DNA from: an uncultured Kiritimatiellota bacterium
GTDB lineage: Bacteria; Verrucomicrobiota; Kiritimatiellia; RFP12; UBA1067
DNA: 64,000 nucleotides
Reading direction: 5' to 3'
NCBI GenBank assembly: GCA_934635225.1
Contig: CAKTYZ010000003.1
Coordinates: 3,312-67,311, forward strand
Below, piece after piece: positions 6,249-39,068 of the stretch (within the stretch, counting starts at the first letter, position 1; every line of letters starts with the position of its first letter). The notes beneath the pieces are model-generated. The model was not told the DNA's origin. It did not search any database and worked only from the letters and a program-made list of their open reading frames with translations. A program made the translations under genes and the position numbers.

Positions 6249-6272
6249 CGCCTTGTGTCTCCTTGGTTCAAC

Positions 6273-9172: not shown

Positions 9173-9245
9173 CCGGGTCACAAACGGCGTCAAGTCATGT
9201 CGGAAAACCGATTTCCAACTGTTTTTAGGTTTAGTGACAAAACTG

Positions 9246-10781: not shown

Positions 10782-10797
10782 TTTTTTCCTTTTTGTC

Positions 10798-12858: not shown

Positions 12859-12887
12859 TGTCTGATCCTTTCCTTGTCTGATGTGAT

Positions 12888-19493: not shown

Positions 19494-22400
19494 CTACCGT
19501 CCTTTCGCCGTGCGCGCCGTCAGGCGCACAAGCTCGACCAAACCCTTTTGCCTTGGATTGTCGTTGCCGACGAGGATGAGCTCGTTCTCATCTCCGAAGC
19601 GCACGAAGGGCGTGATGTCGAGATCCGTACGGTCGCCGAAGCGGTGGTGGTGCCGCCGGACGTAGCGTCCGTTGACGATTACCCCGACGAGGCGGTCGCC
19701 CCGGCTCGTGAAATCGATGCGCACGCGAAGGCTCTTCCAGTCCGCCGGCACGGCGACGCGGCGACGGAAGGCCAGGACGCCCGCGTAATCGCCCGGCAGC
19801 GAGACCGACCGCACGGTCGACCCCGTGAAGTCCGTCAACGCGTCCCATTCCCCGGAAAGGTCAAGCGTCCGCTCCGGGCGCGGACGGCGGTAGAGATAGA
19901 TCGGGCCGCCAAAGCCGCGCACGCGCGGATGCGCATCCCCCCGGACGGACAGCTCCAGCACATGCGTCTCGCCGGCCTTCACCGGCAGGGCGAGTCCGCA
20001 GACGCCTTCGCGCAGCGGGCGGCGGATCTCGCGTCCGTCCAGCCGCACGGACAGCTCCGCCCGCACGAACAGGAACGGGTACATGCCGACCGCCCACAGC
20101 TCGACGTCGCCGTCCGTCCAGTCCGCCGGCACGGTGAACGTGCGCGAAAGCGCATAAGCCTCCGGCGCATCGTCCAGCCCGACCACGCGCGGGGCGACCG
20201 CCGTCGCCGTGCCGTCGGCCGTGCGCCAGCCGTCCGTCAGCGGCAGCACGTCGGGATGGCGCGCGCCCGCCGGCTCGGACGGCGGCGCGGCGTCGGCGCG
20301 ACGCGCGCGCGGACCGCCCTGCCACCAGCCGAACTGGTTCTTCACCCAGTGCCAGGCCGCGCGTTCGTTCGCGCCGCGCAGCGACGTGCCCATCACGAAG
20401 TCGTTGTCTTCAAAATGGCCCTTCATCGCCATCGGCTTCCCGGTCAGCACGTCCGTGACGTCCCGCGCCTTCCCGTCGCGGAAGGAGACCGCGTAGTCGC
20501 GCGCCCTCTCCGTGTCGGCGTACCACACGTCGTACAGCCCGTCCGTCGTCACGTAGTGTCGCGCGAAGCCGCGTCCGCCCGTCATCGCGATCGGCTTCTC
20601 GCGCACGCCGAGTTCCTTCAGCAGCTGACGCAGCGCCCGCCACTCGACCCCTTCGTAGAGGCTGTGCGGGCGGATGCCGAACGACACGAAGCGGCCCTTG
20701 CCGACGCGGCGGACCGTGACGGCGGGCGCGCCGTCCTCCCAGCGCCAGACCGTCTCGACCGCCGGATCCGTCACCCGATAGCGGACGCCGTCCGCCCGGA
20801 AGCTGTCCGGCACGTCGTCCGCGCCCGTTCCCTTCTCGCAGCGCACCTGCGCGAACGGTCCCTTGCAGACGATGCTCGGGATGCCGTTCGCGTCCGCCTC
20901 CGTCGCGTAGACGGACATCCCGTCCGGCTCGACGCCGGCCAGGCCCTTGAGCGCCCAGCGGTCGGGGGCGCGCGGCGTGTGGCGGCCCGACTGGAACATC
21001 GCGACATACGTGCCGCCGCCGCGCACGTAGCGTTCGATGCCCGCAACCTGTGCGGCGTCCATCAGCGTGTTGTTCGCATCGACGAGGCACCTGTAGCGGG
21101 ACGCATTCCCGTCCGCGAAGTCGCACGGCGTCACCGCGTCCAGCTGGAAGCTGTCGCCAAGCGTCGCGGCGAACCGCCAGGTCATGTAGCCGGATGGATA
21201 CGCGCTCGCGACGTCCGTGCGCCACGGGAAGCCCATCGCGTGGTTGACGCCGGAATCGACGACCATCGCGAGCTCCGCCTCGGGCGGCGTCATCCGCCCC
21301 AGCATCTTCAGCGCGGGCAGGCGCCGGACGTACTCGGCGGCGATTTCGGGGTGCCACGACACGCATCCGACGTGGATGAAGTAGTGGATCGCGTTCACGC
21401 CCTCCGCCATGTAGAAGTTCGTCATGCGCCGGAATCCCTCGCGGTCGTGGGCGGGGCCGCCCGGCTCCAGCGAGAACGGCAGCCCCTTCGAGCGCATCAG
21501 CATCGGCAGCAGCTCCCACCAGAACGCCGCCATGCCGCCCGTGTCGTGGAAGCGCGCGCCGTACGCCGCCGCGATCTCGCGCAGCGGCGTCAGGTAGGTC
21601 ATCGGCGCCATCGAGACGATGCCCTTGTCCGGTTCGACTGCGCGCAGGCGGTCAAGCCCCCGGCGCACCGTCTGCACGCGCGACCACTCCTGCCAGCCGC
21701 AGAAGTCGATCCAGCGCGCGTTCCCCCCTTCGCCGAAGTACGGGTACGCTTTCGGCTCCTCGTGCGTGAGGTAGACCTTGTAGCAGCACTTTCCGTCCGG
21801 CAGCGTCAGCTCGACGCCGTTGCGCCCCGGCCGCAGCGCGTCCGTCACCTCGCGCACCATCCAGTGGACGCTGCCGTGCGGCACGAAGCTCTCGAACGAC
21901 GTGCCGTTGACCCGGACGCCGACGCGCGCGAACGCCGTCTTCGACAGGTCCCACACGTACAGCCACGTGCGCGCGCCGGCCTTCGCCCGCGCCGGAAGGT
22001 CGAACGCCCGGCGGTAGACGGCGGACTCCTTCGGCAGGAACGCCGCGAGCTGGTGACCCGGCATCTCGACCCGGCTCCACTCGCCTGTCGCGCCGACGGG
22101 ACGGCGCCGCCATGTGCCCTTCAGGTCGATCGCGTCCGGGCCGAACCCCGCGAATTCCGCGATCTCGGGCAGCCGCACGTCCGCCCAGGACTTCACCGAC
22201 GCGTCCTTCCACCGCGCGGAGACGGCCGCCGCCGTGCCGTATTTCCCCTTCAGGTACTTTCGGTAGGAGGCGTCGGCCAGCGGTCCGTACTCGATGAACG
22301 GCGTGAACGCGCCGTGGCTCAGCTCGCCGCATGGCTCGAGGAAGTCGACCACGTTGGACGAGTTGCATTCGCGCAGGCCGTTCGCCAGCGTCGCGAGCAA

Positions 22401-23207
22401 GTCCTCCCGCCCCCGTTCGCTCGCCCAGCTGAGGAAGGGCTCGCCAACCGAATGCTCCGACCCGACGCCGTGATAGCCGCCAAGGTAGTCCGGCGCGCCC
22501 GTTTCCTGATCCTCGCGGAAGTCGTCCAGTACGCCCGCCGGCGTCGAGCCGTTCGTGTTGAGCACGACGGGCAGCCCATGCGACTCGGCCAGCCGCTTCG
22601 CCCACAGCCAGCCGTTTCGGTCATCCAGCCCCTTCGCCGTGTCGCAGAAGTGGCCGTTCATCCAGAAGACCAGCCCGGCCGCGCCATTCGTCTCGGCGAA
22701 GCCGAACTCCGGCAGCGGATCGTACGTCTCCCACGGCAGCCCATAGCGCTTGGCCGGATTCGCGCTCGGCGGCGTCATCCGCTCGCGGTAGTAGAAGCGG
22801 AAGGCATGGTCGTCCCAGGCGTTCAGGTAGAACGGCACGCCGGGAAGCGTCCCCGCGAAGGAGCCCTTCGGCTCGCCGTCCGAATACGCGACGCGGAACT
22901 CGCGCCCCTCGACGCCAATCTTCGTCCACCCGCCGCCCGGCAGACGGTAGACGCCGGGGCGGGCGCGGTGCGCCGCGTAGACGTGGTCGTAGCGCGCCGC
23001 CCACAGGAGGGCCTTCTCGGGCGTCTCCGCCGTGACGACGGTCACGTTCCCGTGCCGCGACGCCCGTGTCAGGCCATAGCCGCGCAAGTCCCGCGCCGCC
23101 AGCGCCTCCTCGTCTGCCGCGCCGCACGGCGCCCACGCGCAGACGGCCAGCGCACAGGCCGCGCCCATCACGCGAACAGCTCTCATTCTTCTCATTTGCC
23201 AGTGCAT
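19494..23207 (-). CDS. Giant secreted GH42-like glycosidase paralog 1 (family unassigned)
   Basis: Signal peptide MHWQMRRMRAVRVMGAACALAVCAWAPCGA. It has a GGTYVAMF trimerisation-like segment, an L(K/R)GTW motif, and a C-terminal NGRYVRRHHHRFGDRTDLDITPFVRFGDEN domain shared with paralog 2. An alternative start MRRMRAV at 23195 overlaps the upstream stop as ATGA. Confidence 0.5.
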   Translation of the reverse strand: MHWQMRRMRAVRVMGAACALAVCAWAPCGAADEEALAARDLRGYGLTRASRHGNVTVVTAETPEKALLWAARYDHVYAAHRARPGVYRLPGGGWTKIGVEGREFRVAYSDGEPKGSFAGTLPGVPFYLNAWDDHAFRFYYRERMTPPSANPAKRYGLPWETYDPLPEFGFAETNGAAGLVFWMNGHFCDTAKGLDDRNGWLWAKRLAESHGLPVVLNTNGSTPAGVLDDFREDQETGAPDYLGGYHGVGSEHSVGEPFLSWASERGREDLLATLANGLRECNSSNVVDFLEPCGELSHGAFTPFIEYGPLADASYRKYLKGKYGTAAAVSARWKDASVKSWADVRLPEIAEFAGFGPDAIDLKGTWRRRPVGATGEWSRVEMPGHQLAAFLPKESAVYRRAFDLPARAKAGARTWLYVWDLSKTAFARVGVRVNGTSFESFVPHGSVHWMVREVTDALRPGRNGVELTLPDGKCCYKVYLTHEEPKAYPYFGEGGNARWIDFCGWQEWSRVQTVRRGLDRLRAVEPDKGIVSMAPMTYLTPLREIAAAYGARFHDTGGMAAFWWELLPMLMRSKGLPFSLEPGGPAHDREGFRRMTNFYMAEGVNAIHYFIHVGCVSWHPEIAAEYVRRLPALKMLGRMTPPEAELAMVVDSGVNHAMGFPWRTDVASAYPSGYMTWRFAATLGDSFQLDAVTPCDFADGNASRYRCLVDANNTLMDAAQVAGIERYVRGGGTYVAMFQSGRHTPRAPDRWALKGLAGVEPDGMSVYATEADANGIPSIVCKGPFAQVRCEKGTGADDVPDSFRADGVRYRVTDPAVETVWRWEDGAPAVTVRRVGKGRFVSFGIRPHSLYEGVEWRALRQLLKELGVREKPIAMTGGRGFARHYVTTDGLYDVWYADTERARDYAVSFRDGKARDVTDVLTGKPMAMKGHFEDNDFVMGTSLRGANERAAWHWVKNQFGWWQGGPRARRADAAPPSEPAGARHPDVLPLTDGWRTADGTATAVAPRVVGLDDAPEAYALSRTFTVPADWTDGDVELWAVGMYPFLFVRAELSVRLDGREIRRPLREGVCGLALPVKAGETHVLELSVRGDAHPRVRGFGGPIYLYRRPRPERTLDLSGEWDALTDFTGSTVRSVSLPGDYAGVLAFRRRVAVPADWKSLRVRIDFTSRGDRLVGVIVNGRYVRRHHHRFGDRTDLDITPFVRFGDENELILVGNDNPRQKGLVELVRLTARTAKGR

Positions 23208-25201
23208 CCTTTCTTCAAGTCCTCGTCTCTGCCCAGGCCCTCGACCCGGAACGGCCCGGCCGGAAGCCCGGTCGCGCCGAAGATCGCGGCGCCCGGTTCC
23301 GGGAAGTTCCGCCACAGGTAGCGCACGCCGGAAATCGCGAACGGCGCCGTCACGCGGACGCGCCCGCCGTCCGCGAACGCCGCCTCCGCCGCGTGCCACG
23401 CCCCCGAGGCGTCCTGCGCCTCGAACCCCGGCAGCGCGCCGCCCGGCTGCGAGGGCCGCGCGGGCGGCGGCGCGAACGCGACGATCGCCGTCCGGCCTTC
23501 CGCCTCCACGCGCACGGCCTGGGGGCCGTCCGCCACGACGTCCCGGCAGCCATACGTCTTCGCCAGCGCCTGCCGCGCGAGGCGGCGCCCCTGCTCGCGC
23601 TTGTCCGGCGGGTGGATGTCGCGCCGGCTACCGATGTCGATCGAGCACGCGAAGCCGACGCCGGGAATCTGCACGGACGCGAGCCGCTGCGCCTCGCGGA
23701 TCTCGCTCCACGTCTCGTCCGCGCGATGCGGCTCGTGGTTCGCCAGCTGCACGCCGTAGAACGGCAGGTCGGGACGCCCCCAGCCCGCGCGCAAGAGGCT
23801 GATGAGCCGCGAGAGGTCGGCGAGATAGGCGGCGCAGTCCCGCCGCGCCTGCGCGTCCGCCTCGCCCTGGTAGAAGAGGACGCCCTTCACGGGCAGGCGG
23901 AAGAACGGACGGATGCACGCGCCCCAGCTGCCGCCGTAGGTGCGCGGCGGCTTCGGGACCGCAAGACTTCTGCGGCAGCGCCAGCCCGCGCCCGCGAGGG
24001 AGAACGCCGCCTGCGGCGCGTCCGCCGGCGCGAGCGTCAGCGTCCCGCTGAACGCGCCCCACCACGTGAGCCGGTCTCGGCAGCCCACGACGGCGGTGAC
24101 CGCGTTCGACCCCGCCTTCACGGCCGCCGCCGGCACGCGGAAACGCCACGGGCGCGCGCCGGTCTCGCCCGGCACGGGCGCGTCCCACGCCTTTGAGGCG
24201 CCCACGCGCGCGCCATTGAAGAAGATGACGCACGGCAAGGCCGACTGCCCGAGGTCGAGGGCCAGGTCGCGCCCCGTCCAGGCGCCCGGGACCTCGACTT
24301 CTCGCGAAAAGGCGGCAATGCCCGCGAAATCCTTCAGGACCGTGTGCTCAAGCCCGCCCGCCGCCGGAAGGGAGACCGGCTCGCCGTCTTCCGCCTCGGA
24401 CGCCGTCGCAAGCGCCTTCAGCCGCGCCGCGTCGCCGAAAAGCGCGTGCGCTTCGGCTATGGCCGCATCGGCCCGCGCAAAGCCGTCCGCCGCCGCCCGC
24501 AGCGCGTCGCGCGAGCGCGCGAGCGCCTGGGGATCCCGCTGTCCGCTCGGCAGGAAGTGGCGGATCGGGGGCCCCGGCCAGGCCGCGCCGACCAGGCCGA
24601 TCGGCACGTCGCCCAGCCTCTCGCGCACGGCTCGCGCGAAATGGCAGGCCAGCGCGGAGAAGTCGCGCGCCGTCTGCGGCGTCAGGCGCGTCCAGCCGCG
24701 CACGTAGGGCGGCTCGTCCACCTCCGCCTCCGACCCGAGCAGCGGCACGTCCAGAAGGCGGATGTCCGGGCAGTCCGCCGCCGCCAGCTCGCGTTCGGGA
24801 TTCCCGGACCGGGCCAGCGGCCACCAGGCGTTCGACTGCCCCGTGCAGAACCAGACGTCGCCCACGAGGACGTCCGTCAGGCGGACTTCCGCCGCGCCGT
24901 CGGACGCGACGACCTCGTAAGGCCCGCCCGGCGCACCGACGGCGGGGAACTGGACGCGCCACGCGCCGTCCGCCCCCACGGCGACCGTCTCGAACGTCCC
25001 GCCGAACGCGACGCGCACCGTGCGCCCCGTTTCGCCAAAGCCCGCGAAGGGAACCGGCTCGCCGCGCTGGACGACCATGTGCGACGACCAGGCGCGGCCG
25101 AACCTCAGCGGACTCGGCTCCGCCGCCGCGGCGCACGCAAGGGCCAGACCCGCCGCCAAGAAGGCCCCCCGCCCCAGATGCAGATGTCCCGCACGTCCCA
25201 T
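23192..25201 (-). CDS. Secreted sialate O-acetylesterase (SGNH hydrolase, DUF303 family), second copy
   Basis: Signal peptide MGRAGHLHLGRGAFLAAGLALACAAA. The DUF303-type N-terminus ...VVQRGEPVPFAG... has a GQSNAWW motif. A C-terminal SGNH hydrolase block (VLFYQGEADA...DIHP) follows an inserted beta-sandwich. The start was set at the internal Met. Confidence 0.8.
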   Translation of the reverse strand: MGRAGHLHLGRGAFLAAGLALACAAAAEPSPLRFGRAWSSHMVVQRGEPVPFAGFGETGRTVRVAFGGTFETVAVGADGAWRVQFPAVGAPGGPYEVVASDGAAEVRLTDVLVGDVWFCTGQSNAWWPLARSGNPERELAAADCPDIRLLDVPLLGSEAEVDEPPYVRGWTRLTPQTARDFSALACHFARAVRERLGDVPIGLVGAAWPGPPIRHFLPSGQRDPQALARSRDALRAAADGFARADAAIAEAHALFGDAARLKALATASEAEDGEPVSLPAAGGLEHTVLKDFAGIAAFSREVEVPGAWTGRDLALDLGQSALPCVIFFNGARVGASKAWDAPVPGETGARPWRFRVPAAAVKAGSNAVTAVVGCRDRLTWWGAFSGTLTLAPADAPQAAFSLAGAGWRCRRSLAVPKPPRTYGGSWGACIRPFFRLPVKGVLFYQGEADAQARRDCAAYLADLSRLISLLRAGWGRPDLPFYGVQLANHEPHRADETWSEIREAQRLASVQIPGVGFACSIDIGSRRDIHPPDKREQGRRLARQALAKTYGCRDVVADGPQAVRVEAEGRTAIVAFAPPPARPSQPGGALPGFEAQDASGAWHAAEAAFADGGRVRVTAPFAISGVRYLWRNFPEPGAAIFGATGLPAGPFRVEGLGRDEDLKKGCTGK

Positions 25202-25218
25202 GTGGCCCCTTCCCGCGA

Positions 25219-28200
25219 TCACCGCACCGCGTCGCGCGGATAGAGCTCCAGCCGGACGTCGATCTTCGAGAAGTCCCAGCCGCCGCGCGGCGGATCGCCG
25301 CAAGGCTTCAGCACGTTCTCCTCGCCAAAGCGCAGGATCGACGTGACGTCGACGTCGGTCACGTTCCCGAAGCGGTGATGGTGCCGGCGCATGTAGCGCC
25401 CGTTCAGCGTCTCGACGCCGAGCGGGACGGCCACGCGCGCGCCGGGCTTCGGCTCCATGTGGATGAAGACACGGTACCTTCCTTCCCATTCCTTCGGAAC
25501 GAACTGCCGCGTCGGCAGCTTCGCGAGCGTGAAGGACTCTTCGGCAAACGCGCGGTGGAAGAGGTAGACCGCACCGTTCACGCCCGTGAAGCGGTGGCCT
25601 TTCGGCGGCGCGTCGAACGCGAACGTGAGGACGTTCCCCGTCGGCTTGAGCAGGTTGGTCACGTCTTCGGCGACGCGCTCGCCCGTCGTCGTCTTCTCGC
25701 GCAGGACGACGCCGTTCAGCGTGATCTTGGCGGACGACAGGAAGTTCGGCCCCACCCATGCGCCGCAGACGAAGCGCACGCGCCCTCCCTGCAGCCATTT
25801 CGGGTCGTCGAGGTCGAACGTCTTCGTGATCGTCGCGGCCGCGCCGTCGGCGAGGCCCCAGAACTGGAGCGCGTCGGCGACGCACGGATTCCCGGAGTCC
25901 GCGAACGTCCAGCCTGCCTTGAGGTCCTGCGTCGGGTCCTTCCACTTGCCCTGCGCGTAGTTCGAGAAGTCGCGCGTCGGCTTCTTGAGTTCGCGCCAGG
26001 CGGACTGGCTCTCCTTCCACCAGTGTCCGACGGCATCCGCCGGCTCGTAGACGCGGGCGTTCACGACCATCGCCTCCTGCGCCGCGAGGTCCGCCGCGAA
26101 CGTGCAGACGCCGTCGGCGAAGTCGAACGCGAGACTTTCCTCGCCGCGCGCGCTCCACGCCGTCAGCGCGGCGGGCCGGCGCGGCACGCGCAGGGCGACG
26201 CGCGCCTTCTGCATGCCGTTCGTGTTGAAGTTGCAGAGGACGGTCACGGCGTCCAGCCCGTCACCGGAGCGGTAGGGCTGGGCCCAGACGAGCGGGTCGT
26301 CCGTCGTGCAGACGGCCGCGTCCGCGCCGACGTCGGCGAGAAGCTCCTTCCAGAACGCCGTCTCCCCCGCGCCCGGCCACCAGATGCCCATGACGTCGCG
26401 GCTGTCGCGCGCGAACGCGCTGCCGAGCCAGACGACCCGGCCCTTGCCGAGCCGACGCACGGTGACCGCCGCCGCGCCGTTCTCGTACGTCGCGGCAATC
26501 TCGGTCGCGGCGTCCGTCGGCGCGAGCTCGACCGAATAGTCGTTCCGGTTGTTGCCGTTCGAGTCGACCGTCCGTCCCGTGTCGGGATACGCGCGCCCCT
26601 TCCACGTCACCGTGCCGCCGAGGGGCCGCAGCTTCGCCGCCTTCGCCCCCGCGAGCGCGGCGATCGGCCAGGCGTCGTTCGCCGTCGCGAGGGAACGCCC
26701 CGTGAACGGCCAGGCGATGAACGTGCCGCCCGCCTTCACCCAGTCGGCGATTTCCGCGAGGCGCGCCGGGTCGTGGATCTCGTTGCCGCTGTCGACCATG
26801 ACCCTGAAGCCGCGCATCTTGCCCGCCGCGACGCCGTCGTCGTCGATGTAGAGCATGGACTGCCCGAGCGACTGCAGCGCGCCGCGCCCGATGTCCCAGT
26901 CCCACGGCGTGTTGACGTCATGCCCCTTCACGCCGACAAGCGGCTCCGGCGCGGGGAAGCTGTCCATCGTCAGGAGCGAACGGCGGTAGATGAGGACCTG
27001 CGGCCCCGCGATGTCGATGTCATAGGTCCCCATCCGCTGCAGCAGGCCGCGATGCGCGAGCCACCACGCGCGCACGGGCGGATTGCGCGAATACGTCTGC
27101 GTCAGGAACACGGGCTCGTGCATGTCAAGGCCCGCGAGGAAGACGCGGAGCGTCGACCGCCGCGCGTCTTCGACGGTGGCATAGGGCCCGGCGAGCTCGC
27201 TCGTGCCCGGATAGCCCCAGAGCCGGCCGTACCGCTTGTACCAGGGGAAGTACCAGATGCCCTCGCCCGTGAAGTGGGCGAACCCGCCCCAGTCGCGCAT
27301 CAGCTCGTCCGTGATCGGCGTGCCGAGCGTGATCGGCGCCATCATCTTGATCGGGGCGTCGGGATCGGCCTGGCGCATGGCCTCGAAGACGATCTCGAGC
27401 TTGCGCCGCTTCGCGTCGCGACGCCAGTCGTTCCAGAGCGCGTACATCCTGTTCCGCGCCGCGCCGAGGTTCGGGTAGACGGCCGGTTCCTGCGTCGAGA
27501 GGAAGACGCGCCCGTTCCAGAAGTGCCCGCGCATGAGGAACTCGAGCTCGTTCGCGCCCGTGCGCAGACGGTCCGTCACGTCCAGCGCACACCACGTCCC
27601 GACGTCGGCGACCTTCTCGCCGTTGAGCGTGACCTCGTGGCGCACGTTGACCGGCGACATCGGGAAGAAGTAGAGGTAGACCTTCCTGCCGGCGGCGACG
27701 GCCGGATCCCAGCCGAAGAACCGGCGCATCCGGCGCGGCGTCTTCGACTGACGGTCGTTTCCGGCCGTGTCGTAATACTTAAGGTAATCGAGGTTGCCGG
27801 GCATCGCGAGCGCCGTCCAGTCCGTGCGGTTCGACGACGAGAACCACGTGCCCGCAAGATCCTTCACCAGCCCCGGGAGCCCCGCGAACGTCGCGAATTC
27901 CGGCGGCTCGACCTGGTCCCAGCTGACAAATCCGTTCTCCCCGCGCGAATACATCTCGCTCGCCTCGGACAGCGTGACGCCGTTTCGCTTCAGGAAGGCG
28001 GTCCAGTCGGCCTTCGCGGCGGGCGAATAGTCGCCGTGCATGTCGTACCAGGACTGATGGACGATTTCTCCGACCGGATGCATCCACCCGCGCACGGCGG
28101 GCGTCTTGAACTTCCGCATCACGTCAGCGGTCTGCCGACCGATGTAGCTCCAGATGTCCGCGTCGTACCAGCTGATGTGCGGCTGATGGGCGTGGTCGTA

Positions 28201-29016
28201 GCGCAGCCAGCCGTTCATCATCCACGGCGCGGGCTGTTCCATGTGGTCGGCGAACCGGCGGGCTATCCAGTCGAACCCGTTGCACGGCATGTAGAGGCGG
28301 TAGGCGTAGGGAATGCCCTGATCCTCGGCGTACTTCGCCTTCCAGCGGACGCCGTTCGCCGCGACGATTCCGTCCGAGTCGTCCTGGCCCTCGAGCTCAA
28401 GCCAGTTGTCGAAGTGCATCCCGCCCATCTCCTTCAGGAAGGCGAAGTCCTCGCGCGGATCGAGCTGCTCGCCGCGCTTCGCGCCGGCCCGGTTCATCCA
28501 GTTGTGGAAGTCCTCGAGCCCGCCCATGCCGTAGGTGCCCCAGGCGAACGGCGACATCCACTCGGGACACGCCGCCTGCGTGACCAGCCCGTCGCGCACG
28601 TCGGGGTGCACGCCCAGCCAGTCCACCAGCGTCGCCGCGTCCGGCGCGGCGAGAATGACGGCCTCCGTTCCGCGCCGCGCCACGGCGAACGCGGCGCCGG
28701 GCGCTTCCAGCACGCCGTCCCTTTCCGCGACGCCCGCGCCTTTCCGCACGTCGTGCAGGAACTTGCCCGCGACTGTCTCAGCGTTCGTCGCCGAAGCCGT
28801 CGCGAACCGGAATGCGTCCACGCGCCGTGCGCCGTCCGTCATCGTCTCGCACGTCACGGCGCAACGCCCGAAGCCGCGCAGGTCCGCCGTCTCGGCCGTC
28901 TCCAGCCGGCTGACGACGCGCCACGCCGCCCCTTGCACAGCGTCTGCCGACGCCTCCTGCGCGGCAAGCGCCGCGACGCCCATGAAAAGAATTCCGACCT
29001 TCGTTCTCATTTTCAT
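25219..29016 (-). CDS. Giant secreted GH42-like glycosidase paralog 2
   Basis: Signal peptide MKMRTKVGILFMGVAALAAQEASA. Motifs shared with paralogs 1 and 3 include MMAPITLG..., GGTFIAWPF, LAGTW, and a C-terminal NGRYMRRHHHRFGNVTDVDVT...RFGEEN domain. 1265 aa. Confidence 0.5.
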   Translation of the reverse strand: MKMRTKVGILFMGVAALAAQEASADAVQGAAWRVVSRLETAETADLRGFGRCAVTCETMTDGARRVDAFRFATASATNAETVAGKFLHDVRKGAGVAERDGVLEAPGAAFAVARRGTEAVILAAPDAATLVDWLGVHPDVRDGLVTQAACPEWMSPFAWGTYGMGGLEDFHNWMNRAGAKRGEQLDPREDFAFLKEMGGMHFDNWLELEGQDDSDGIVAANGVRWKAKYAEDQGIPYAYRLYMPCNGFDWIARRFADHMEQPAPWMMNGWLRYDHAHQPHISWYDADIWSYIGRQTADVMRKFKTPAVRGWMHPVGEIVHQSWYDMHGDYSPAAKADWTAFLKRNGVTLSEASEMYSRGENGFVSWDQVEPPEFATFAGLPGLVKDLAGTWFSSSNRTDWTALAMPGNLDYLKYYDTAGNDRQSKTPRRMRRFFGWDPAVAAGRKVYLYFFPMSPVNVRHEVTLNGEKVADVGTWCALDVTDRLRTGANELEFLMRGHFWNGRVFLSTQEPAVYPNLGAARNRMYALWNDWRRDAKRRKLEIVFEAMRQADPDAPIKMMAPITLGTPITDELMRDWGGFAHFTGEGIWYFPWYKRYGRLWGYPGTSELAGPYATVEDARRSTLRVFLAGLDMHEPVFLTQTYSRNPPVRAWWLAHRGLLQRMGTYDIDIAGPQVLIYRRSLLTMDSFPAPEPLVGVKGHDVNTPWDWDIGRGALQSLGQSMLYIDDDGVAAGKMRGFRVMVDSGNEIHDPARLAEIADWVKAGGTFIAWPFTGRSLATANDAWPIAALAGAKAAKLRPLGGTVTWKGRAYPDTGRTVDSNGNNRNDYSVELAPTDAATEIAATYENGAAAVTVRRLGKGRVVWLGSAFARDSRDVMGIWWPGAGETAFWKELLADVGADAAVCTTDDPLVWAQPYRSGDGLDAVTVLCNFNTNGMQKARVALRVPRRPAALTAWSARGEESLAFDFADGVCTFAADLAAQEAMVVNARVYEPADAVGHWWKESQSAWRELKKPTRDFSNYAQGKWKDPTQDLKAGWTFADSGNPCVADALQFWGLADGAAATITKTFDLDDPKWLQGGRVRFVCGAWVGPNFLSSAKITLNGVVLREKTTTGERVAEDVTNLLKPTGNVLTFAFDAPPKGHRFTGVNGAVYLFHRAFAEESFTLAKLPTRQFVPKEWEGRYRVFIHMEPKPGARVAVPLGVETLNGRYMRRHHHRFGNVTDVDVTSILRFGEENVLKPCGDPPRGGWDFSKIDVRLELYPRDAVR

Positions 29017-29059
29017 TTTCCAGATGTCCGTATTTTATCAAAATCTCCGAATGCGCGGC

Positions 29060-32000
29060 CTAAGGCAGCTCCAGCCACGCGCGCGGAACCGTCTTCGGCG
29101 GCTTCGTCCGCCAGTCCGGCTCGTCGCGACCGCATTGCGGCCACCAGCGCAGGACGTTCGGTCGTCCGTCCCGCCGCAGGAGGCCCGTCACGTCAACCGC
29201 CTCCATCGTCGGCGGCACCTGAAGCATCACGCCGTTGAGAAGAAGGTAGTTCATCTTCGCTTCCGAGGCCAGAAAGACGCGTCCGCCCGTCGCAGGCGTC
29301 GCGAAAGCCGTGCGGACGCAGCCGGCAAGGCCGGGCGCGAAGTCCTTCAGCGGCGCCGTCTCCGTCGGCTGCGGACGCGCCTCGGCGTAGAAGACGCCGT
29401 GGACGCCGCTCGGCAGATACCGCCGCGCGCCGGCCGGCAGCCGCCCGTCAATCGCGACTTCAAGCGTCACCTCGCCCGCGTCGGGAAGCGCCGCGCGAAA
29501 GGACAGGTTGTCCGTGCGCGGAACGGCCACGCCACCGACCTTCACCGTCGCACGCGGATTCAGCCCCGTCACGTAGCCCTGCGACGCGAACTTCAGCATG
29601 ACGCGACGGCCTTTCCAGGCGGAAGGAATCGCGACGCGCCTCACGAACGTCGCGGACGCGGCCGGATCGTCCAGCCCCATCGTCACATACGATCCGAGCG
29701 TCACGGCGCGACCGCTCTCGACGTGCGTCCACCCCCCCTGCAGCGGCAGGAAGCGTCCCTCGGCGGCGGTGGCTACCGCTGGCTTCGGCGCCGGCGACAC
29801 GGGGTCGAGCGCATACCAACGCCGCGCGAGGGACTTCAGCCAGTAGAGCGGCGCAAACCCGGCGTCCTCGCGAAGCGCCGCGTAGACGCGCGACTCGAAT
29901 GGCTCCAGCGGGACGTCCGTCAGCGTCAGGCGGTTTTCCGCGTCCTGCGCGAACGGACGCTCGGGATGGCCCTCGGCGGACAGTTCGACAAGACGGCCGA
30001 CCCGGCCCGAGACATGGAAGCGCGGCGAGGCCGAGACGCTGTTCGTGCCGCCCATCAGCGCCAGCAGACAGAGGTCGTAGAGGCCGTTCTTTGAGCGCCA
30101 GACCTCGGCAAAGCAGTCGCGCATTCCCTTGAGCTGGGCGCCGCCCGACGTGCGCGGCACGCCCAGGCGATCGAGCAGGTCTCCGAGCGCGGGGACCTGC
30201 GCGGGGTCCTCGAAGTTGAACTTGCGCCCGTCGTCGCGCGTGCGCCACCACGCGCCGCTCCACAGGCAGACAAGCCGCCCCTTCCCGATGGCAAACGTGC
30301 GGCAGTTGACGGGATCCGTCCCGCCGTGCAGGACGGCTTGCGCCGGGAGACCAAGCGCGGCGAACAGCGGCCAGACGTTCCGCTTCAGGTGCGTGTGTGT
30401 CCCCGTGTGCTCGTTGGCGATGAACGTTCCGCCCGCCCGGACGAAGCGCGCGACGGCCTCGGCCTCCTCAGGCGTCAGGATCGTCGTCGCGGCGTCCATG
30501 ATGAACTTCACGCGCGTCCACGGCCGGTCGGCCACCAGGTCTGAGGGGTCGATCAGCCCCGGCACGCGCCCTGTCGCCTGAAGGACGCCACGGGACGGAT
30601 CGAGCCGCCACGGGTTCGGGTCGCGCAGGCGCGAGGCGTTCCGGATCGAGCGCATCACGCAGATGTCGAATTCGTCGCGGTCGTGCTTGCCGAGGCAGTC
30701 GAGCCACGCCCGGTGGCTCTCGATCCACGCGCCCTTGCCGTTCGCGCGGAACATGTCGGGGTCGAACAGCAGGTTCACCGCGTCGTTGCCGAGCATCAGG
30801 TACTGCGTGAACATCTGGCGCAGACGCGTGACGTCCGGCGGCACGCCGCCGTTCTCGCAGGAGACGGGGTCGCCGCGCGTCTTCCAGTAGCGCGAACACC
30901 AGGGCGCCCAGCAGGCCTGCGTCTGCCCGGTGTCGTGCTGGTAGCCGCCGTAGCGGCGCAGGATGTCGAAGCTCAGGTCGCCGATCGCCGTCTGGCACAT
31001 CATGAACTGGGGCCGCCCGGCGGGATCGCCGGCCCGGTTGGCCCGCAGACGGCGTGCGTCATACGCGATGACTCTCTTCGCGGCCGTCTCGGAAAGCGCA
31101 AAGAACGCGCGATTCTTCCGCTCGTCGTCGCTCGGATAGGCGAAGCGCCCGTCCGCGCCGAGAAAGGCATAGTACGAGACCGGCGCCCGAAGGCCCTTGA
31201 GCGCAATCTCGTTCGTGCCGACGCGGAGAAGCCCCGCGAGATCATAGCAGATGTCAAGGTCGCCCGTCAGCGGCACGCGGCGCGTGAGGTCCTTCGCGGC
31301 GCGACCGTTCACGGTCACCTCGCCGACTTCCGAAATCCCTCCGTGCCAGTTGCCGCAGGAGAGGTGCAGGTAGCGCGCCTTGCCGAGGTCGCCCGCGAGA
31401 TCGAACGTGCGCGTCAGCGTGAAGCCGTCCTCCTTGGAGGCGTAGGCGAGCAGGACCGGATCTCCCGCATCGACCGGCTGAGGCGGATTCGTCCCGTCGT
31501 CCAGCGTCCACGTGCCGCGCAGGTCGACCGAGACGCCCGGCTTCCAGCCGACGATCTCGCGCATCGTGACGATGTCCTCGTCGCCGACAAAGCCCGGCAG
31601 GCTGGCCGCCTGGCCCGACCCCTTCTCGACCGAGCCGAAATGGGCGATGAAATGGTCGTCCCTCGCGTAGTGACGGGCGCACGCCTGGTTGTCGTAGTCG
31701 ATCAAGTCCGCGATCTTCGGCATCGGCCAGTCGCTGCCGTGCGCGGCATACTTGAAGTAGTAAAGGCTCGTTGGCCCGATCGCGCCGTCCTTCCCCGTCG
31801 CGTACGGAAGCGGGATCTCGTTCCAGAACCAGGCGGGATTCTCCGCGTGCGCCATGAGCGGATAGTCGAGATAGCCGACGCCAAGCCTCTTCGCGTACGC
31901 GGCGATCGCGTCGCCGAGCGCGTGGTTCCAGACGCCGGGCGCAACCCAGGCGGGGGCGCCATAATTGGCCCCGAAGAGGCCGAAGCCCTGCCGTGCGCTC

Positions 32001-32494
32001 CATTCGACGCCCTCGACGAAGTTCGTGGGGAGATGGCCCCAGCCGCCCTGCCCCATGACGACCGGACGGTTGTCGAAGCGGTCGAACCAGAGCGGATAGG
32101 CGTTCGTCACGGCGGGCGAGAAGCCGTCCGGCAGCGCCGGCGCGCCCTTCCGCGAGAAGACCGCCGCCGCGCGGCAGCCGCGATGCCCGACGGCGAAGAG
32201 ACCCGCGTCGTCACCGAAGCGCGAGATGTCCGTCAGGAACTTGGAAGCCGCCATCCGCGCCTGTTCGGGCGTCTCGCAGTCCAGAAGCGTCGTGACCGAG
32301 CCGTCCGGCGCGGCCAAGGCCTCGGCCGAGACCTTGCCGAGCAGCCGCAAGTCAGCCTCGACCGTCTGCCGGGCGGACGACACGGAGACCGCCAGCGCAA
32401 GACCGAATAGGACAGCGAACTTTTGCTGTTTTGCGAAGGTACGGGAGGGACGCGCTTGTCGCGTCCGAGGTCTTGCAAGTCCTTCCATCATCAT
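29060..32494 (-). CDS. Giant secreted GH42-like glycosidase paralog 3
   Basis: N-terminal signal-like segment. It shares GGTFIANEHTG, DLRGTW and FMMCQTAIGD... blocks with paralogs 1 and 2, and has a weaker copy of the C-terminal domain. 1144 aa. Confidence 0.5.
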   Translation of the reverse strand: MMMEGLARPRTRQARPSRTFAKQQKFAVLFGLALAVSVSSARQTVEADLRLLGKVSAEALAAPDGSVTTLLDCETPEQARMAASKFLTDISRFGDDAGLFAVGHRGCRAAAVFSRKGAPALPDGFSPAVTNAYPLWFDRFDNRPVVMGQGGWGHLPTNFVEGVEWSARQGFGLFGANYGAPAWVAPGVWNHALGDAIAAYAKRLGVGYLDYPLMAHAENPAWFWNEIPLPYATGKDGAIGPTSLYYFKYAAHGSDWPMPKIADLIDYDNQACARHYARDDHFIAHFGSVEKGSGQAASLPGFVGDEDIVTMREIVGWKPGVSVDLRGTWTLDDGTNPPQPVDAGDPVLLAYASKEDGFTLTRTFDLAGDLGKARYLHLSCGNWHGGISEVGEVTVNGRAAKDLTRRVPLTGDLDICYDLAGLLRVGTNEIALKGLRAPVSYYAFLGADGRFAYPSDDERKNRAFFALSETAAKRVIAYDARRLRANRAGDPAGRPQFMMCQTAIGDLSFDILRRYGGYQHDTGQTQACWAPWCSRYWKTRGDPVSCENGGVPPDVTRLRQMFTQYLMLGNDAVNLLFDPDMFRANGKGAWIESHRAWLDCLGKHDRDEFDICVMRSIRNASRLRDPNPWRLDPSRGVLQATGRVPGLIDPSDLVADRPWTRVKFIMDAATTILTPEEAEAVARFVRAGGTFIANEHTGTHTHLKRNVWPLFAALGLPAQAVLHGGTDPVNCRTFAIGKGRLVCLWSGAWWRTRDDGRKFNFEDPAQVPALGDLLDRLGVPRTSGGAQLKGMRDCFAEVWRSKNGLYDLCLLALMGGTNSVSASPRFHVSGRVGRLVELSAEGHPERPFAQDAENRLTLTDVPLEPFESRVYAALREDAGFAPLYWLKSLARRWYALDPVSPAPKPAVATAAEGRFLPLQGGWTHVESGRAVTLGSYVTMGLDDPAASATFVRRVAIPSAWKGRRVMLKFASQGYVTGLNPRATVKVGGVAVPRTDNLSFRAALPDAGEVTLEVAIDGRLPAGARRYLPSGVHGVFYAEARPQPTETAPLKDFAPGLAGCVRTAFATPATGGRVFLASEAKMNYLLLNGVMLQVPPTMEAVDVTGLLRRDGRPNVLRWWPQCGRDEPDWRTKPPKTVPRAWLELP

Positions 32495-32502: not shown

Positions 32503-34632
32503 TTATCTCAGGATCATCAGGAACGCTTCGCGCGGCACGCGGAGGCTGACCGTCCGCCGGTCGTCCGAGAGCGTGACCCGCGCGCGGGAGGCGTGTCGGC
32601 GCGCGGCGTCCTGGATCCTTTCCAGCGTCTTCTGCGAAATGCGGATGCGCCAGGTGTCGTTTCCGCCGGAATAGCGGAAAAGCGTCGTCTTCACGCCCGT
32701 CCGGCGCACGGCCGAGAAATCGAAGTCGAAGGCCGTGTCATCGCACAAGTGGAGCGCCTGGTTGGACGACTCGACAGGCGCGGTCGCGTAACCGCCCTCC
32801 GGGACCGCGAACGCGAACGTGCACCGGTTCGTGAAGTCGCCGCTGTTGCCGCCCGTGAGCATCAGCTTCGCTCTCGGCCCGAAGAACGAGAAGCGCGAGC
32901 CGCCATCCGTCTCCGAATCGTTCTGGTAATTGGGAAGAAGCGCGTTCGAGACGTGCAGCGTGCCGTTTGAGAGAACAAGTTCAGAATCCAGACCCGACAG
33001 CCGGACGATGGAGCAGGAGACCGATGAGTCCGTGCCGACCCACAGGCGGTTGCCGGCATTCCCCGATGAGCCGATCTCAATCCGGCTCGTCGCATTCGTG
33101 AAGGAACAGCCGTCCAGCCTGACCCAGTTGTTCGAGGCGCGCACGTCCTCGCGCCCAATCAGGATGTCTCCCGACACCTTGAGCGAGGCTCCGTCCGTCA
33201 CCTCGACATGGTTTCCTCGCGATCCCATGTGTCCGACGACAAGGGCGGCGCCCGACCCCGACCCAACCGTCACAACGGCATCGCGTCCGCGCACGACGAG
33301 GGCATTGTCAAAGCTCGGATAGAGCGCACCGCACCTAATGCGATTGTCACACTGAAGCGTGCCGCCCTCCAGGACCTCAAAGACATTTGAGGCCACGAGG
33401 CTCGTCAGGTAGAGCGGCATCTCCCTGTCGTCCGGATGACGCGCCGCCACGAACACGTTCGTCGCCGCAAGCGTCGCCCCGCCATCGACCGTGACGCGGT
33501 TCCAGAGCGACGTCACGCAGCTGTCGCCATATCCCTTGGCCTGGCCGCCCGCCGAGATCGTGTCCACGAAGGACACCGAATTGCTCGTGAAGTGAATCCG
33601 ATTGAAGAGGCCGTTCTGGCCGGCGGTCAGCGGTCGGTCAAAGCCCGAGTAGAAGTTGGAGAACGTCGTCCCCTCGCCGGCGACATACAGGAGATTCGAA
33701 TGCGAATAGCCGTCGCCCACGGCGAGAAGGATGTGGCCGCCCGCGGCATACGCGCCGTCCACGCCGCCCGCAAGGAACCGGGCGCCGCCGACCACGTCCA
33801 TGCGGTTGCCGTGGTTGGCGGATCCGTTCCCGCAACAGCCGATGTAGAACTGCTCCTGGGTGCCGTTCGGGCACATCGAAAGCGTCGCGTTCGAGACGCA
33901 CAGATACGCAGCGCCGCCATCGCGGTAGGCACTGAGGCCGCCGACGCCGAGGTAGCTCACGTTGGAGACGACCGCGCCGTCCGTGACGTACGCCTGCGAC
34001 CGAAAGCCCTGTCCGCCGACAAGAAGCTCGCTTTTGTTCGCGTCAAGCGACGACCCCTCGCCGCGGATGAAGACGCGGCAGTCGTTGCCGCGGCTGTGGA
34101 GACGACCGCGCATCGAGCCGCCGTCCGCAATCGTCAAATGACGCGTGCCGCCATCCTGGAAGTTCAGGTTGCCGACGAAGCGACCGCCGTTTTCAATGGA
34201 CATCGTGCAGCGCCGATAGGCGTTCCAGAACGTCACCTCCAGCGGATTGCCGTTCGTGTCCTCAAACGCGACCGTGCCGTTGCGGATGACGTTCGTGGCG
34301 TTGTTGTGGTCATGGTTGCTGTAGGGCTTCCGGAACGTCAGCGTGTGCCCGCCGAGGTCGAACGTTCGCCGACCGGCATTGCCCGCAAACCACCACGTGC
34401 CGGGGAAGTCGAGGTCGGCCGTCAGCGTCAGCGTGTAATCCGCCGACGGCTGCGCCTTGAAGCCCATCGCCTCGGACGCCTGCGTCGGACGCATCCCGCC
34501 CTCCCAGTTCGCGTCCGCCGACAGGTCTGTCGAGGCGACCCCCGTCCACCAGACGACCGTCGGATCACCCGCCAGCCCCGACACGGCGCCCAGCGCAACG
34601 CATCCGAAAAGAAGGAGAGCCGAAAGGTTCAT
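32503..34632 (-). CDS. Secreted beta-helix repeat protein (paralog of 10798-12858)
   Basis: Signal peptide MNLSALLLFGCVALGAVSGLAG, followed by repetitive GG/VSN/TL beta-strand repeats. The ATG at 34632 is the likely start, although the ORF track extends to a TTG at 34656 through a G11 tract. Confidence 0.55.
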   Translation of the reverse strand: MNLSALLLFGCVALGAVSGLAGDPTVVWWTGVASTDLSADANWEGGMRPTQASEAMGFKAQPSADYTLTLTADLDFPGTWWFAGNAGRRTFDLGGHTLTFRKPYSNHDHNNATNVIRNGTVAFEDTNGNPLEVTFWNAYRRCTMSIENGGRFVGNLNFQDGGTRHLTIADGGSMRGRLHSRGNDCRVFIRGEGSSLDANKSELLVGGQGFRSQAYVTDGAVVSNVSYLGVGGLSAYRDGGAAYLCVSNATLSMCPNGTQEQFYIGCCGNGSANHGNRMDVVGGARFLAGGVDGAYAAGGHILLAVGDGYSHSNLLYVAGEGTTFSNFYSGFDRPLTAGQNGLFNRIHFTSNSVSFVDTISAGGQAKGYGDSCVTSLWNRVTVDGGATLAATNVFVAARHPDDREMPLYLTSLVASNVFEVLEGGTLQCDNRIRCGALYPSFDNALVVRGRDAVVTVGSGSGAALVVGHMGSRGNHVEVTDGASLKVSGDILIGREDVRASNNWVRLDGCSFTNATSRIEIGSSGNAGNRLWVGTDSSVSCSIVRLSGLDSELVLSNGTLHVSNALLPNYQNDSETDGGSRFSFFGPRAKLMLTGGNSGDFTNRCTFAFAVPEGGYATAPVESSNQALHLCDDTAFDFDFSAVRRTGVKTTLFRYSGGNDTWRIRISQKTLERIQDAARRHASRARVTLSDDRRTVSLRVPREAFLMILR

Positions 34633-34633
34633 A

Positions 34634-34644
34634 CCCCCCCCCCC
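34634..34644. repeat. Homopolymeric C11 tract (G11 on the coding strand) ending 1 nt upstream of the beta-helix gene ATG, in the RBS position
   Basis: The minus strand reads aatataGGGGGGGGGGGtATGaacctt. Confidence 0.9.
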
Positions 34645-34751
34645 TATATTTAGCAAGAACAGCCTTGCGACAAACCGTTTTAATCATTTTTCTCATGTTC
34701 TTCTCTCCTTTTGCTTTCCTTTGTTTCTGCAAGCCGTTGTTGACGACACCG

Positions 34752-35909
34752 TCATTTGCACGTTATGGTCTTCTTGCGCTTATAGTCATAGCAAAGACAG
34801 TTCTTTTGTCGCAAGTACCGATCTGAATTGTTTCCGACCCGGACGATCTTTATCAGCTTGGAGTTCGTGTCAAACGTAACGAAGTTGAAGCTGTCCTGAC
34901 TTTTCGAGCCTCTGATTCGAACGGAGTCATTCCATTGCGAATTGAGACTGGCGTTCTCAAAGGCGATGCAATACTGGGCCGGATGCCCCTTGATGACGCC
35001 TTGATAGTCATAATGCGAATCTCCGTGCATCCAGCAGATGAAATCTCCTCCAGACGAAATAAAGGCATCCACCTCTTGAACGAACTTCATCATGCTGTGA
35101 CCGCCATTGTAAGGCTTTAAGTCAATGCTGTTGAAGGTGTTGTTCTCCGAATCCTGAATCACTTCAAACGGAAAATGCTTTGCGGCGACAACGGAGAGGC
35201 CTTTCTCCTTCGCGTCCGAAAGCGCCTGTGCAAACCAATGAAGCTGCTCGTCGCCCGTGTCTTTCGGAACGAACATGCAGTCCAGAACGATGAGCCTCAC
35301 CTTGGCCTCCGCATAGTCCTTGTAATACCAGCAAAAGCCCTTTTCCTCGGCATCAACGGGCTGGACGACGCCCCAGCTTCCTATATGGGGCTGAAAGTAC
35401 CTAACGTAAGACTCCTTCCCGGAATGATACGACCAGTCCGCCTCGCTCAGGCTGCTATTGAGGGTGTCGTGATTCCCGATGGTCTTCAGAATCTTTTCCG
35501 TGCCTTCAATGCCGTCCCAGAAGTCCATGGGGTCTGCAAACGAAGATGGAACCATATCGCCAAGGCAGAGCATGTCGTCGATGTAGCGCCCGTACTCACG
35601 CGAGAAGTCGACGTATCTCTTCAGGTTTTCCTTGCAGCCATGAATGTCCGTAAAGACAGACAGGGTGCAAAGCCGATGGGACAGGACCAGGTTGCTTGAA
35701 TAGGGCCTTGTCGACTGCAGGATGAGGTTCCCCACGGTCTGCCTGTCATTTAAGTGGAAGACGGAAGATTTCCCGTCGGCAAGATCGCCCGACAGGCCCG
35801 CCAGAGACGACGGCTTTCCGTCCGAAGCGCAGAGCGGCGCGGCGGCGAACGACGCCGTGCCGACGATAAACGACTTTCTCGTGACCTCGCTCATCTTTTC
35901 TATCGCCAT
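34752..35909 (-). CDS. Calcineurin-like metallophosphoesterase, probably secreted
   Basis: GDMV, GNHD and WMHGDSHYDY motifs. The N-terminus ...TRKSFIVGTASFAAAPLCAS resembles a Tat/Sec signal. GC is lower (~50%) than in the flanking genes. Confidence 0.7.
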   Translation of the reverse strand: MAIEKMSEVTRKSFIVGTASFAAAPLCASDGKPSSLAGLSGDLADGKSSVFHLNDRQTVGNLILQSTRPYSSNLVLSHRLCTLSVFTDIHGCKENLKRYVDFSREYGRYIDDMLCLGDMVPSSFADPMDFWDGIEGTEKILKTIGNHDTLNSSLSEADWSYHSGKESYVRYFQPHIGSWGVVQPVDAEEKGFCWYYKDYAEAKVRLIVLDCMFVPKDTGDEQLHWFAQALSDAKEKGLSVVAAKHFPFEVIQDSENNTFNSIDLKPYNGGHSMMKFVQEVDAFISSGGDFICWMHGDSHYDYQGVIKGHPAQYCIAFENASLNSQWNDSVRIRGSKSQDSFNFVTFDTNSKLIKIVRVGNNSDRYLRQKNCLCYDYKRKKTITCK

Positions 35910-38869: not shown

Positions 38870-39068
38870 GGATTCCTTCTCCAGACTACAGTTCGTAGTA
38901 TAGCCGAAATCCTCTCCAGAATCCAGACTGGCCAGCCACTTTGTCAACGCGGCGAGAGGACAAGGAATTGTCTATTTGTGACGTATGCGGCGACGATCCC
39001 GCCAGAGTACGCGATGTGATAGTCCCGGTTGCCGCCGGGATTTGCGCTTGGCATTCTCGCCCCATGGC

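Follow-up and report, generated by a model that had tools for sequence, protein, structure and literature searches.

The three large paralogous genes described here lie in a 64,000-nucleotide stretch (the window) of contig CAKTYZ010000003.1, assembly GCA_934635225.1, from an uncultured Kiritimatiellota bacterium. Their products, which we named P1, P2 and P3, were interpreted, at a probability of about 0.7, as secreted, ancient members of one small family of clan GH-A glycoside hydrolases (GH), likely retaining glycosidases that act on one acetylated glycan. No curated family tested takes these proteins in by sequence, which makes theirs a candidate new GH-A family. The GH42-type fold and the GH2_N jelly rolls of these proteins are known; what sets the family apart is a distinctive domain architecture combined with an altered acid/base motif. 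The three genes, and the esterase gene found among them, have the following positions in the window.

19494-23207, minus strand: P1, 1237 amino acids counted from MHWQM; carries a signal peptide and, near the C-terminus, the RRHHH motif
23195, minus strand: alternative start of P1 (MRRMR), giving 1233 amino acids
23192-25201, minus strand: carbohydrate esterase with a SASA domain (SGNH type) and a signal peptide, between P1 and P2
25219-29016, minus strand: P2, 1265 amino acids, with a signal peptide; the copy chosen for modelling
29060-32494, minus strand: P3, 1144 amino acids, with a signal peptide and without RRHHH; the most divergent paralog

The P1 open reading frame reaches 23399, and the alignment of orthologues favours a start at 23207 or 23195. 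The N-termini of the three paralogs and of the esterase, read from the sequence by eye, are signal-peptide-like.

The amino acid sequences of the three proteins were compared by BLASTP. P1 and P2 share 25% identity over about 1150 amino acids (E 1e-53), P2 and P3 share 24% (E 8e-21), and P1 and P3 share 23% (E 2e-13). Judged by these alignments, the homology is well above chance and the proteins are true paralogs. An earlier note on this DNA had described three long paralogous open reading frames with collinear blocks, and its coordinates, the homology and all the quoted blocks were confirmed. The blocks read, in the three copies, IKMMAP...WGGFAHFTG, IVSMAP...YGARFHDTG and QFMMCQ...YGGYQHDTG; DLKGTW, DLAGTW and DLRGTW; and GGTYVA, GGTFIA and again GGTFIA. 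The same note had called the array a tandem triplication, a term that turned out to be misleading. P1 and P2 each have orthologues in other phyla: one locus, L004, from a metagenome-assembled genome (MAG) of Lentisphaeraceae, encodes a P2 orthologue with 55% identity and, immediately after it, a P1 orthologue with 45%; in another, L002, a P2 orthologue with 63% identity likewise comes directly before a P1 orthologue with 61%. The relatives of P3 form a clade of their own, at 30-41% identity. Because the mutual identity is 23-26% and separate P1 and P2 orthologues exist elsewhere, the array is, by sequence comparison, one of anciently diverged tandem paralogs and not a recent triplication.

P2 was the only paralog modelled. 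An AlphaFold2 model of its residues 26-1000, built from a 56-sequence alignment, had a predicted local distance difference test score (pLDDT) of 92.3 and a predicted template modelling score (pTM) of 0.92. When this core was compared with the PDB using Foldseek, whole GH42 chains ranked first (8ibr, 5e9a, 3tts, 4ucf, 5dfa, 4uoq and 5xb7), with E values of 1e-21 to 1e-19, template modelling (TM) scores of 0.64-0.69 normalised on the target and 10-12% identity. The next-ranked matches were an Ignavibacterium GH35 beta-1,2-glucosyltransferase, a GH164 beta-mannosidase and the GH35 enzyme GlmA (E 1e-19 to 1e-16). The model shows the three-domain GH42 fold, namely a barrel, an alpha/beta trimerisation domain and a C-terminal beta-sandwich, and has an alpha/beta domain of about 115 amino acids ahead of the barrel. 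The description "GH42-like" in the earlier note thus holds for the P2 model, which matches whole GH42 chains across all three domains and whose strand-4 region also aligns weakly by sequence. The domains of P2 and the C-terminal motifs of P1 and P2 are located as follows.

27901-28569, minus strand: P2 TIM barrel strands 1-4, about residues 150-372 (DSSP of the AlphaFold2 model), including HPVGE
27496-27870, minus strand: GH2_N-type jelly roll inside the P2 barrel, about residues 383-507, starting with the DLAGTW block
27013-27483, minus strand: P2 TIM barrel strands 5-8, about residues 512-668 (DSSP), holding IKMMAP, HFTGEG and GTSELAGP
26332-27009, minus strand: P2 GH42M-type alpha/beta (trimerisation) domain, about residues 670-895, containing GGTFIA
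26047-26319, minus strand: P2 beta-sandwich corresponding to GH42 domain C, about residues 900-990 (DSSP of the model and full-length Foldseek alignment)
25546-25938, minus strand: P2 first C-terminal jelly roll, about residues 1027-1157, with a weak profile match to GH2 structures 5ldr/5euv (E 0.09)
25222-25542, minus strand: P2 last jelly roll, about residues 1159-1265, which carries the C-terminal motif
25309-25404, minus strand: P2 C-terminal motif NGRYMRRHHHRFGNVTDVDVTSILRFGEENVL, inside the last jelly roll
19578-19673, minus strand: P1 C-terminal motif NGRYVRRHHHRFGDRTDLDITPFVRFGDENEL, inside the Pfam Glyco_hydro_2_N match at P1 residues 1125-1208

Sequence searches recovered parts of this fold. 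The Pfam GH42M model PF08532 matched P2 residues 753-872 above its cutoff (E 1.4e-8), P1 had weak matches to Glyco_hydro_42M and Glyco_hydro_2_N, and P3 had no Pfam match. A family profile searched against PDB sequences reached GH42 chains in two places only, the strand-4 region (E 7e-4 to 7e-3) and the GH42M domain, where it matched chains 9ta3 and 3tts. PF02449, the Pfam model of the GH42 catalytic domain, matched two distant relatives, P0059 and P0057, over just 77-80 residues around strand 4 (25.6 and 19.2 bits, respectively). The NCBIfam scan of P1-P3 gave chance-level matches only, and phmmer against all PDB sequences gave none for P2 and four at chance level (E 0.1-0.54) for P1. The earlier note had held that the proteins have no confident family by sequence and had named a clear, full-length match to an established family as the result that would overturn this. 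The statement stands: neither the Pfam model for the GH42 catalytic domain, nor NCBIfam, nor phmmer against the PDB returned a meaningful match, and a full-length one was not obtained with any of the three.

The layout of clan GH-A, a barrel with conserved carboxylates at the ends of strands 4 and 7, was found in the P2 model by DSSP. Strand 4 (model residues 283-292) ends at E317 in the sequence WMHPVGE, and strand 7 (model residues 579-582) ends at E607 in GTSELAGP. The alignment column of E317 holds Glu in 55 of the 56 sequences and that of E607 in all 56; both residues are kept in P1, in P3 and in the P3 clade, the latter in a separate alignment of P3 and 25 relatives. A profile alignment placed the family string phGE opposite GNEY/DNEF of GH42, so that E317 falls on the acid/base Glu of the NE motif. 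The family lacks the Asn-Glu pair of that motif, but the Glu itself is in register. In 30-amino acid windows, the family alignment is most conserved on barrel strands 6-7 and the parts of the barrel next to them. The candidate catalytic residues correspond to these codons.

22323-22325, minus strand: P1 candidate acid/base E295
21465-21467, minus strand: P1 candidate nucleophile E581
28066-28068, minus strand: P2 candidate acid/base E317
27196-27198, minus strand: P2 candidate nucleophile E607
31625-31627, minus strand: P3 candidate acid/base E290
30854-30856, minus strand: P3 candidate nucleophile E547

Since the two Glu residues lie at the same strand ends as in GH-A enzymes, a retaining double-displacement mechanism is the most likely one on the basis of the model. 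Each copy would then act as a retaining glycosidase, with E317 as the acid/base and E607 as the nucleophile in the case of P2.

The paralogs carry beta-domains that are absent from GH42 enzymes. One of these is inserted in the barrel of P2, after strand 4 and its helices, and is all-beta over model residues 358-482 by DSSP. The family profile in this region matched the N-terminal domains of GH2 enzymes among PDB sequences (6s6z, E 3.5e-8), and the P2 insert has a Pfam PF22666 match. The other two are C-terminal. A model of P2 residues 990-1265 (pLDDT 94.2) showed two beta-sandwich domains, and its top 50 Foldseek matches were all GH2 enzymes (E about 3e-6), among them LacZ, BgaA, beta-glucuronidases and BtMan2A. 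The idea that this module has a novel fold was consequently rejected. At the sequence level, Pfam PF02837 matched P1 residues 1125-1208 with E 6e-5 and 23.4 bits, under its 28-bit cutoff, and family profile positions 1219-1287 matched the GH2 sugar-binding domain, with signature columns D1223, T1225, G1231 and N1234 invariant or nearly so. Both the fold and the signature of the GH2_N/galactose-binding-like jelly roll (PF02837, PF22666) were therefore found. The family string NG..V.RHHH.FG..TD(I/V)D(I/V)T...RFGEEN lines up with NG..vg.H.GGy.pF.fDiT....G.eN, which we take to be the GH2_N consensus and which agrees with the coordinates of the Pfam match. Because the motif is the ordinary GH2_N signature, the C-terminal module is, according to the model, two GH2 N-terminal-type jelly rolls, a known domain type.

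Of this motif, solely the RRHHH run is family-specific. The motif occurs in P1 and P2 and not in P3, and it is the best-conserved stretch between the first two, with 67% identity over a 30-amino acid window compared with 22% overall. The R-(R/K)-H-H-H columns are each conserved in 46-51 of the 56 sequences of the P2-centred alignment; among distant P1-type proteins the run loosens to (R/M)(R/K)xHH, and the P3 clade lacks it. The earlier note had proposed an unusual, possibly beta-sandwich domain, nearly identical over about 55 amino acids in two paralogs. The beta-sandwich was borne out by the model, and the domain proved to be a GH2 N-terminal jelly roll rather than an unusual one; the near identity holds for about 32 amino acids of P1 and P2 and not for 55. 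An equivalence of RRHHH to the active-site Asp loop of GH2 enzymes (D163 of GUS, D201 of LacZ) was considered and rejected: RRHHH aligns with the earlier H.GGY loop, and the Asp loop presumably follows the jelly roll.

Comparison with characterized enzymes defines what the family shares with them. GH42 proteins such as BiBga42A (8ibr), the Rahnella (5e9a) and Bacillus circulans (3tts) enzymes and BlGal42A (4uoq) have the same domain order as the P2 core, and their strand-4 segment and following helices can be aligned with the family, with the acid/base Glu in register. However, the family proteins have an extra N-terminal domain, a jelly roll in the barrel and two C-terminal jelly rolls, which make them about twice as long; Asn precedes the acid/base in GH42, whereas Gly or another residue does so in the family. 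GH42 enzymes are typically cytoplasmic, while the family proteins, with their signal-peptide-like N-termini, are predicted to be secreted. The known activities of GH42 are beta-galactosidase and alpha-L-arabinopyranosidase. The layout of barrel, GH42M-like domain and beta-sandwich is also found in GH164 Bs164 (6t5o/6t7g), a beta-mannosidase; GH35 7vkx, a beta-1,2-glucosyltransferase that also appears in the weak strand-4 alignment with the family profile; and GH35 GlmA (8oug), an archaeal exo-beta-glucosaminidase. These have Foldseek scores below those of GH42, no sequence relation to the family past strand 4, and neither the inserted nor the C-terminal jelly rolls, but they indicate that the scaffold can host specificities other than beta-galactosidase. 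The GH2 N-terminal domain (PF02837/PF22666, as in LacZ domain 1, GUS and BtMan2A) is the same jelly roll as the insert and the two C-terminal domains of the family. In GH2 it is single and N-terminal, whereas the family has three copies, one in the barrel and two C-terminal, and the eH.GGY loop of GH2 is replaced by the R-(R/K)-H-H-H run.

The genes of P3, P2, the esterase and P1 are packed as an operon, as seen from the intergenic gaps (43 nucleotides between P3 and P2, 17 between P2 and the esterase) and from the overlap of the esterase stop TGA with an in-frame P1 ATG (the Met of MRRMR) as ATGA at 23192-23195 on the minus strand. This stop/start overlap suggests that the translation of the esterase and P1 is coupled. 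The order of transcription is GntR/Peripla_BP_3 regulator, GH29, 385-amino acid protein, U717 (a 717-amino acid secreted protein), P3, P2, SASA esterase, P1, GH92, GH2-like 1310-amino acid protein, 701-amino acid protein and second SASA esterase. The genes around the paralogs are listed below.

37709-38947, minus strand: GntR/Peripla_BP_3 regulator (Pfam), upstream end of the cluster
35985-37712, minus strand: GH29 alpha-L-fucosidase (Pfam), upstream end of the cluster
34752-35909, minus strand: open reading frame of 385 amino acids, between U717 and GH29
32503-34656, minus strand: U717, secreted protein of unknown function, 717 amino acids, at the head of the paralog block
17201-19465, minus strand: GH92 alpha-mannosidase (Pfam E 7.6e-150), directly downstream of P1
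12888-16820, minus strand: GH2-like protein of 1310 amino acids with weak GH2 matches
10798-12903: open reading frame of 701 amino acids, after the GH2-like gene in the cluster
9246-11216, minus strand: second SASA esterase, the last gene listed in the cluster

The shared operon with an esterase, GH92 and GH29 makes it probable that the three copies act on one acetylated mannose/fucose glycan. Under the GntR/sugar-binding regulator, the operon would supply the SASA esterase, the GH92 and GH29 enzymes and the GH2-like enzyme together with P1-P3, and the three copies would remove, by exo-action, different beta-linked sugars from one acetylated mannose- and fucose-containing glycan. The target might be, for example, an N-glycan-like host or dietary glycan, cleaved after or alongside its deacetylation.

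The neighbourhood was compared among nine independent loci that hold a P2 orthologue, the window included; the other loci compared with the window are designated L002 and L004-L014. A further family paralog lies within 10 kb in six of the nine (the window, L002, L004, L005, L006 and L012), P2 and P1 being directly adjacent in L002 and L004, and L007, L013 and L014 have a P2 orthologue and no other family paralog. P1-type genes occur alone in L008-L011, and most loci lack P3. Two distant loci, L005 from a Capsulimonadaceae MAG (21-13906) and L012 (1-13978), each have, independently, a row of three family paralogs. The layout of these two loci mirrors the three paralogs plus esterase of the window, with a CE4 deacetylase in L005 and a carboxylesterase in L012; L012 also holds GH127, GH2 and true GH42 genes. 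An esterase of the SASA, GDSL, CE4, carboxylesterase or AXE1 type is present, mostly adjacent, in six of the nine loci (the window, L005, L006, L007, L012 and L013), and in L006 it is an orthologue of the window SASA esterase (44% identical) directly after the P2 orthologue. GH92 genes occur in three of these loci (the window, L004 and L013); L011 has one next to its P1-type gene, and a GH29 gene as well. The GntR regulator with its periplasmic-binding-protein domain recurs in L007, L008, L011 and L014. Homologues of U717 lie directly upstream of the P2 orthologues in L002 (34% identity; 234-2336), L004 (about 7707-9845) and L006 (28%; 7414-9585), at 28-34% identity in the three cases.

The esterase between P1 and P2 had been called a sialate O-acetylesterase in the earlier note. 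Its position (23192-25201) is correct, but the "sialate" label came from the Pfam SASA match alone. That match (E 2e-17) covers the SASA model in its C-terminal half only, and scans of parts of the window revealed no sialidase, which leaves the label not secure at the level of sequence. The place next to P2 is taken in other loci by GDSL, CE4, AXE1 or carboxylesterase genes. A weak jelly-roll match (NCBIfam rhamnoside_JR, residues 278-358) was also observed mid-protein; together with the half-model SASA match it suggests a domain inserted into the esterase fold.

Several observations weigh against the interpretation of P1-P3 as GH-A glycosidases acting on one glycan. PF02449 found no match in P1, P2 or P3 even at E 0.1, P2 has only 10-12% identity to GH42 structures, and the profile of the second barrel half found no GH match and no similar solved protein among PDB sequences. 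Because this half matches no solved structure, the nucleophile E607 was assigned from its strand-7 position and its invariance, and not from a sequence alignment to the GH42 nucleophile. The residue before the acid/base is Gly in 55 of the 56 aligned sequences and V, P, A, T or D in the P3 clade, but never Asn. In GH-A enzymes this Asn usually contacts the substrate 2-OH, and its replacement may, speculatively, reflect a different substituent or chemistry at the substrate C2. As for the substrate, the simplest reading of the gene neighbourhoods is a conserved toolkit for an acetylated alpha-mannose/fucose glycan in which the paralogs would provide the beta-glycosidase steps; some distant P1-type members, however, stand alone.

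Other explanations were weighed against these data. The presence of three homologous genes on the same strand inside 13 kb could be taken for a recent local tandem triplication or gene amplification, but this has next to no probability: the orthologue comparison refutes it, with P1 and P2 orthologues that are closer (45-63%) than the 23-26% among the copies and are paired alike in Lentisphaeraceae and other bins, and with a P3 that has its own clade of relatives. Three jelly rolls per protein and a missing canonical NE motif would also suit non-catalytic, glycan-binding or structural pseudo-enzymes with a glycosidase fold. We consider that highly improbable and rejected it, given a pair of putative catalytic Glu that is invariant or nearly so across paralogs at about 23% identity, and given that the most conserved windows lie on strands 6-7 and the adjoining barrel segments.

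Less extreme is the proposal that the proteins are divergent but genuine GH42 beta-galactosidases or alpha-L-arabinopyranosidases that could be filed under GH42. All three GH42 domains are matched by fold, some distant relatives have weak PF02449 matches, and NCBI calls a few of them "beta-galactosidase". Nevertheless, where PF02449 does match relatives, only some 77 of its 376 positions, those near strand 4, are covered; with the PF02449 result and the low identity of P1-P3 given above, a second barrel half similar to no solved protein, the loss of the NE motif, and four additional domains, including one within the barrel, a place in GH42 seems unlikely. The paralogs could also be subunits of a hetero-oligomer, for example a P1/P2(/P3) heterotrimer held by the GH42M domain. 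GH42 enzymes are trimers assembled through this domain, for which PF08532 is named, and the second paralog within 10 kb in six of nine P2 loci, the adjacent P2-P1 pairs and the apparent translational coupling in the operon fit this proposal. On the other hand, lone P2 orthologues (L007, L013 and L014) and lone P1-type genes (L008-L011) occur, P3 is lacking in most loci, and both candidate catalytic Glu are kept in all copies, which fits independent enzymes equally well; we regard such an assembly as unlikely. A combination of these elements, in which a new GH family with a specificity absent from GH42, GH35 and GH164 and with an RRHHH subsite works as a hetero-oligomer of the co-inherited P2 and P1 (with P3 in the window) with distinct active sites, was likewise given a low probability. 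In it, the highly conserved RRHHH loop of the last jelly roll would fold back, in cis or from a neighbouring subunit, to form a positive subsite or a metal site at the active centre. The substrate might be, for instance, a beta-linked sugar with an acetyl or anionic substituent on or close to C2, in line with the lost Asn. The preferred interpretation remains that P1-P3 are secreted, anciently diverged and likely retaining GH-A glycosidases of one family.

By the searches carried out, this family is small. With P3 as the query, an exhaustive HMMER pass through 1.84 billion cluster representatives yielded only 210 proteins (E <= 1e-3), and word-based searches with P2, P3 and P1 gave 59, 5 and at least 167 relatives, respectively. 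In total, 263 full-length relatives were retrieved; the closest of the three paralogs is P1 for 147 of them, P2 for 83 and P3 for 33. Their named sources are Kiritimatiellia, Victivallales/Lentisphaeraceae, Opitutaceae (strain TAV5), Coraliomargarita parva, Chthoniobacter, Planctomycetota and Armatimonadota/Capsulimonadaceae, and their database names are only "hypothetical protein", "beta-galactosidase trimerization domain-containing protein" or "beta-galactosidase". Literature searches on Kiritimatiellota carbohydrate-active enzymes and on GH42-like families found no paper on the family. Published "GH42-like" proteins belong to carrageenan loci of marine Paraglaciecola, Pseudoalteromonas and Colwellia, and the newness of the P1-P3 family is stated without comparison to them.

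Other features of the loci were recorded. U717 has no Pfam or NCBIfam match even at E 1, and the 701-amino acid open reading frame looks like its distant paralog. The 385-amino acid open reading frame matched no family, a PhoD-like match being at chance level (E 0.16). The 1310-amino acid protein matched Glyco_hydro_2_C (E 1e-4) and NCBIfam GalA (E 1e-16, far under the cutoff), and is, from these sequence matches, another strongly divergent glycosidase in the cluster. Locus L002 (CAVCJC010000009.1) is binned as "Lachnospira hominis", yet it has the U717-P2-P1 cassette at 34-63% identity to the window, and is probably a mis-binned contig of the Planctomycetes-Verrucomicrobia-Chlamydiae group. 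Within the window, the segment 40000-46800 has a GC content of 47-53% compared with about 65% elsewhere and encodes an NgoFVII-type restriction endonuclease (43987-45027) and a C5 cytosine methyltransferase (45057-46793); this island is probably a horizontally acquired restriction-modification system. Contigs 97-99% identical to the window come from uncultured Kiritimatiellaeota MAGs whose isolate names are labelled "Hadza" and "Nepal", which we take from the names, as the records do not state it, to be human-gut metagenome cohorts.

Much of the enzyme repertoire of Kiritimatiellia, Lentisphaeria and Opitutia, which specialise in degrading glycans, lacks annotation. The family described here belongs to operons conserved with mannosidases, fucosidases and esterases, one of them in a lineage taken to be of the human gut. 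For enzymology the finding is incremental, rather than a conceptual surprise or a new kind of biology. Once an activity is assigned, the family would probably become a new CAZy family and account for one step in the degradation of an acetylated fucose/mannose glycan; such an assignment would also show how the GH42 scaffold accommodates a whole domain inserted in its barrel.

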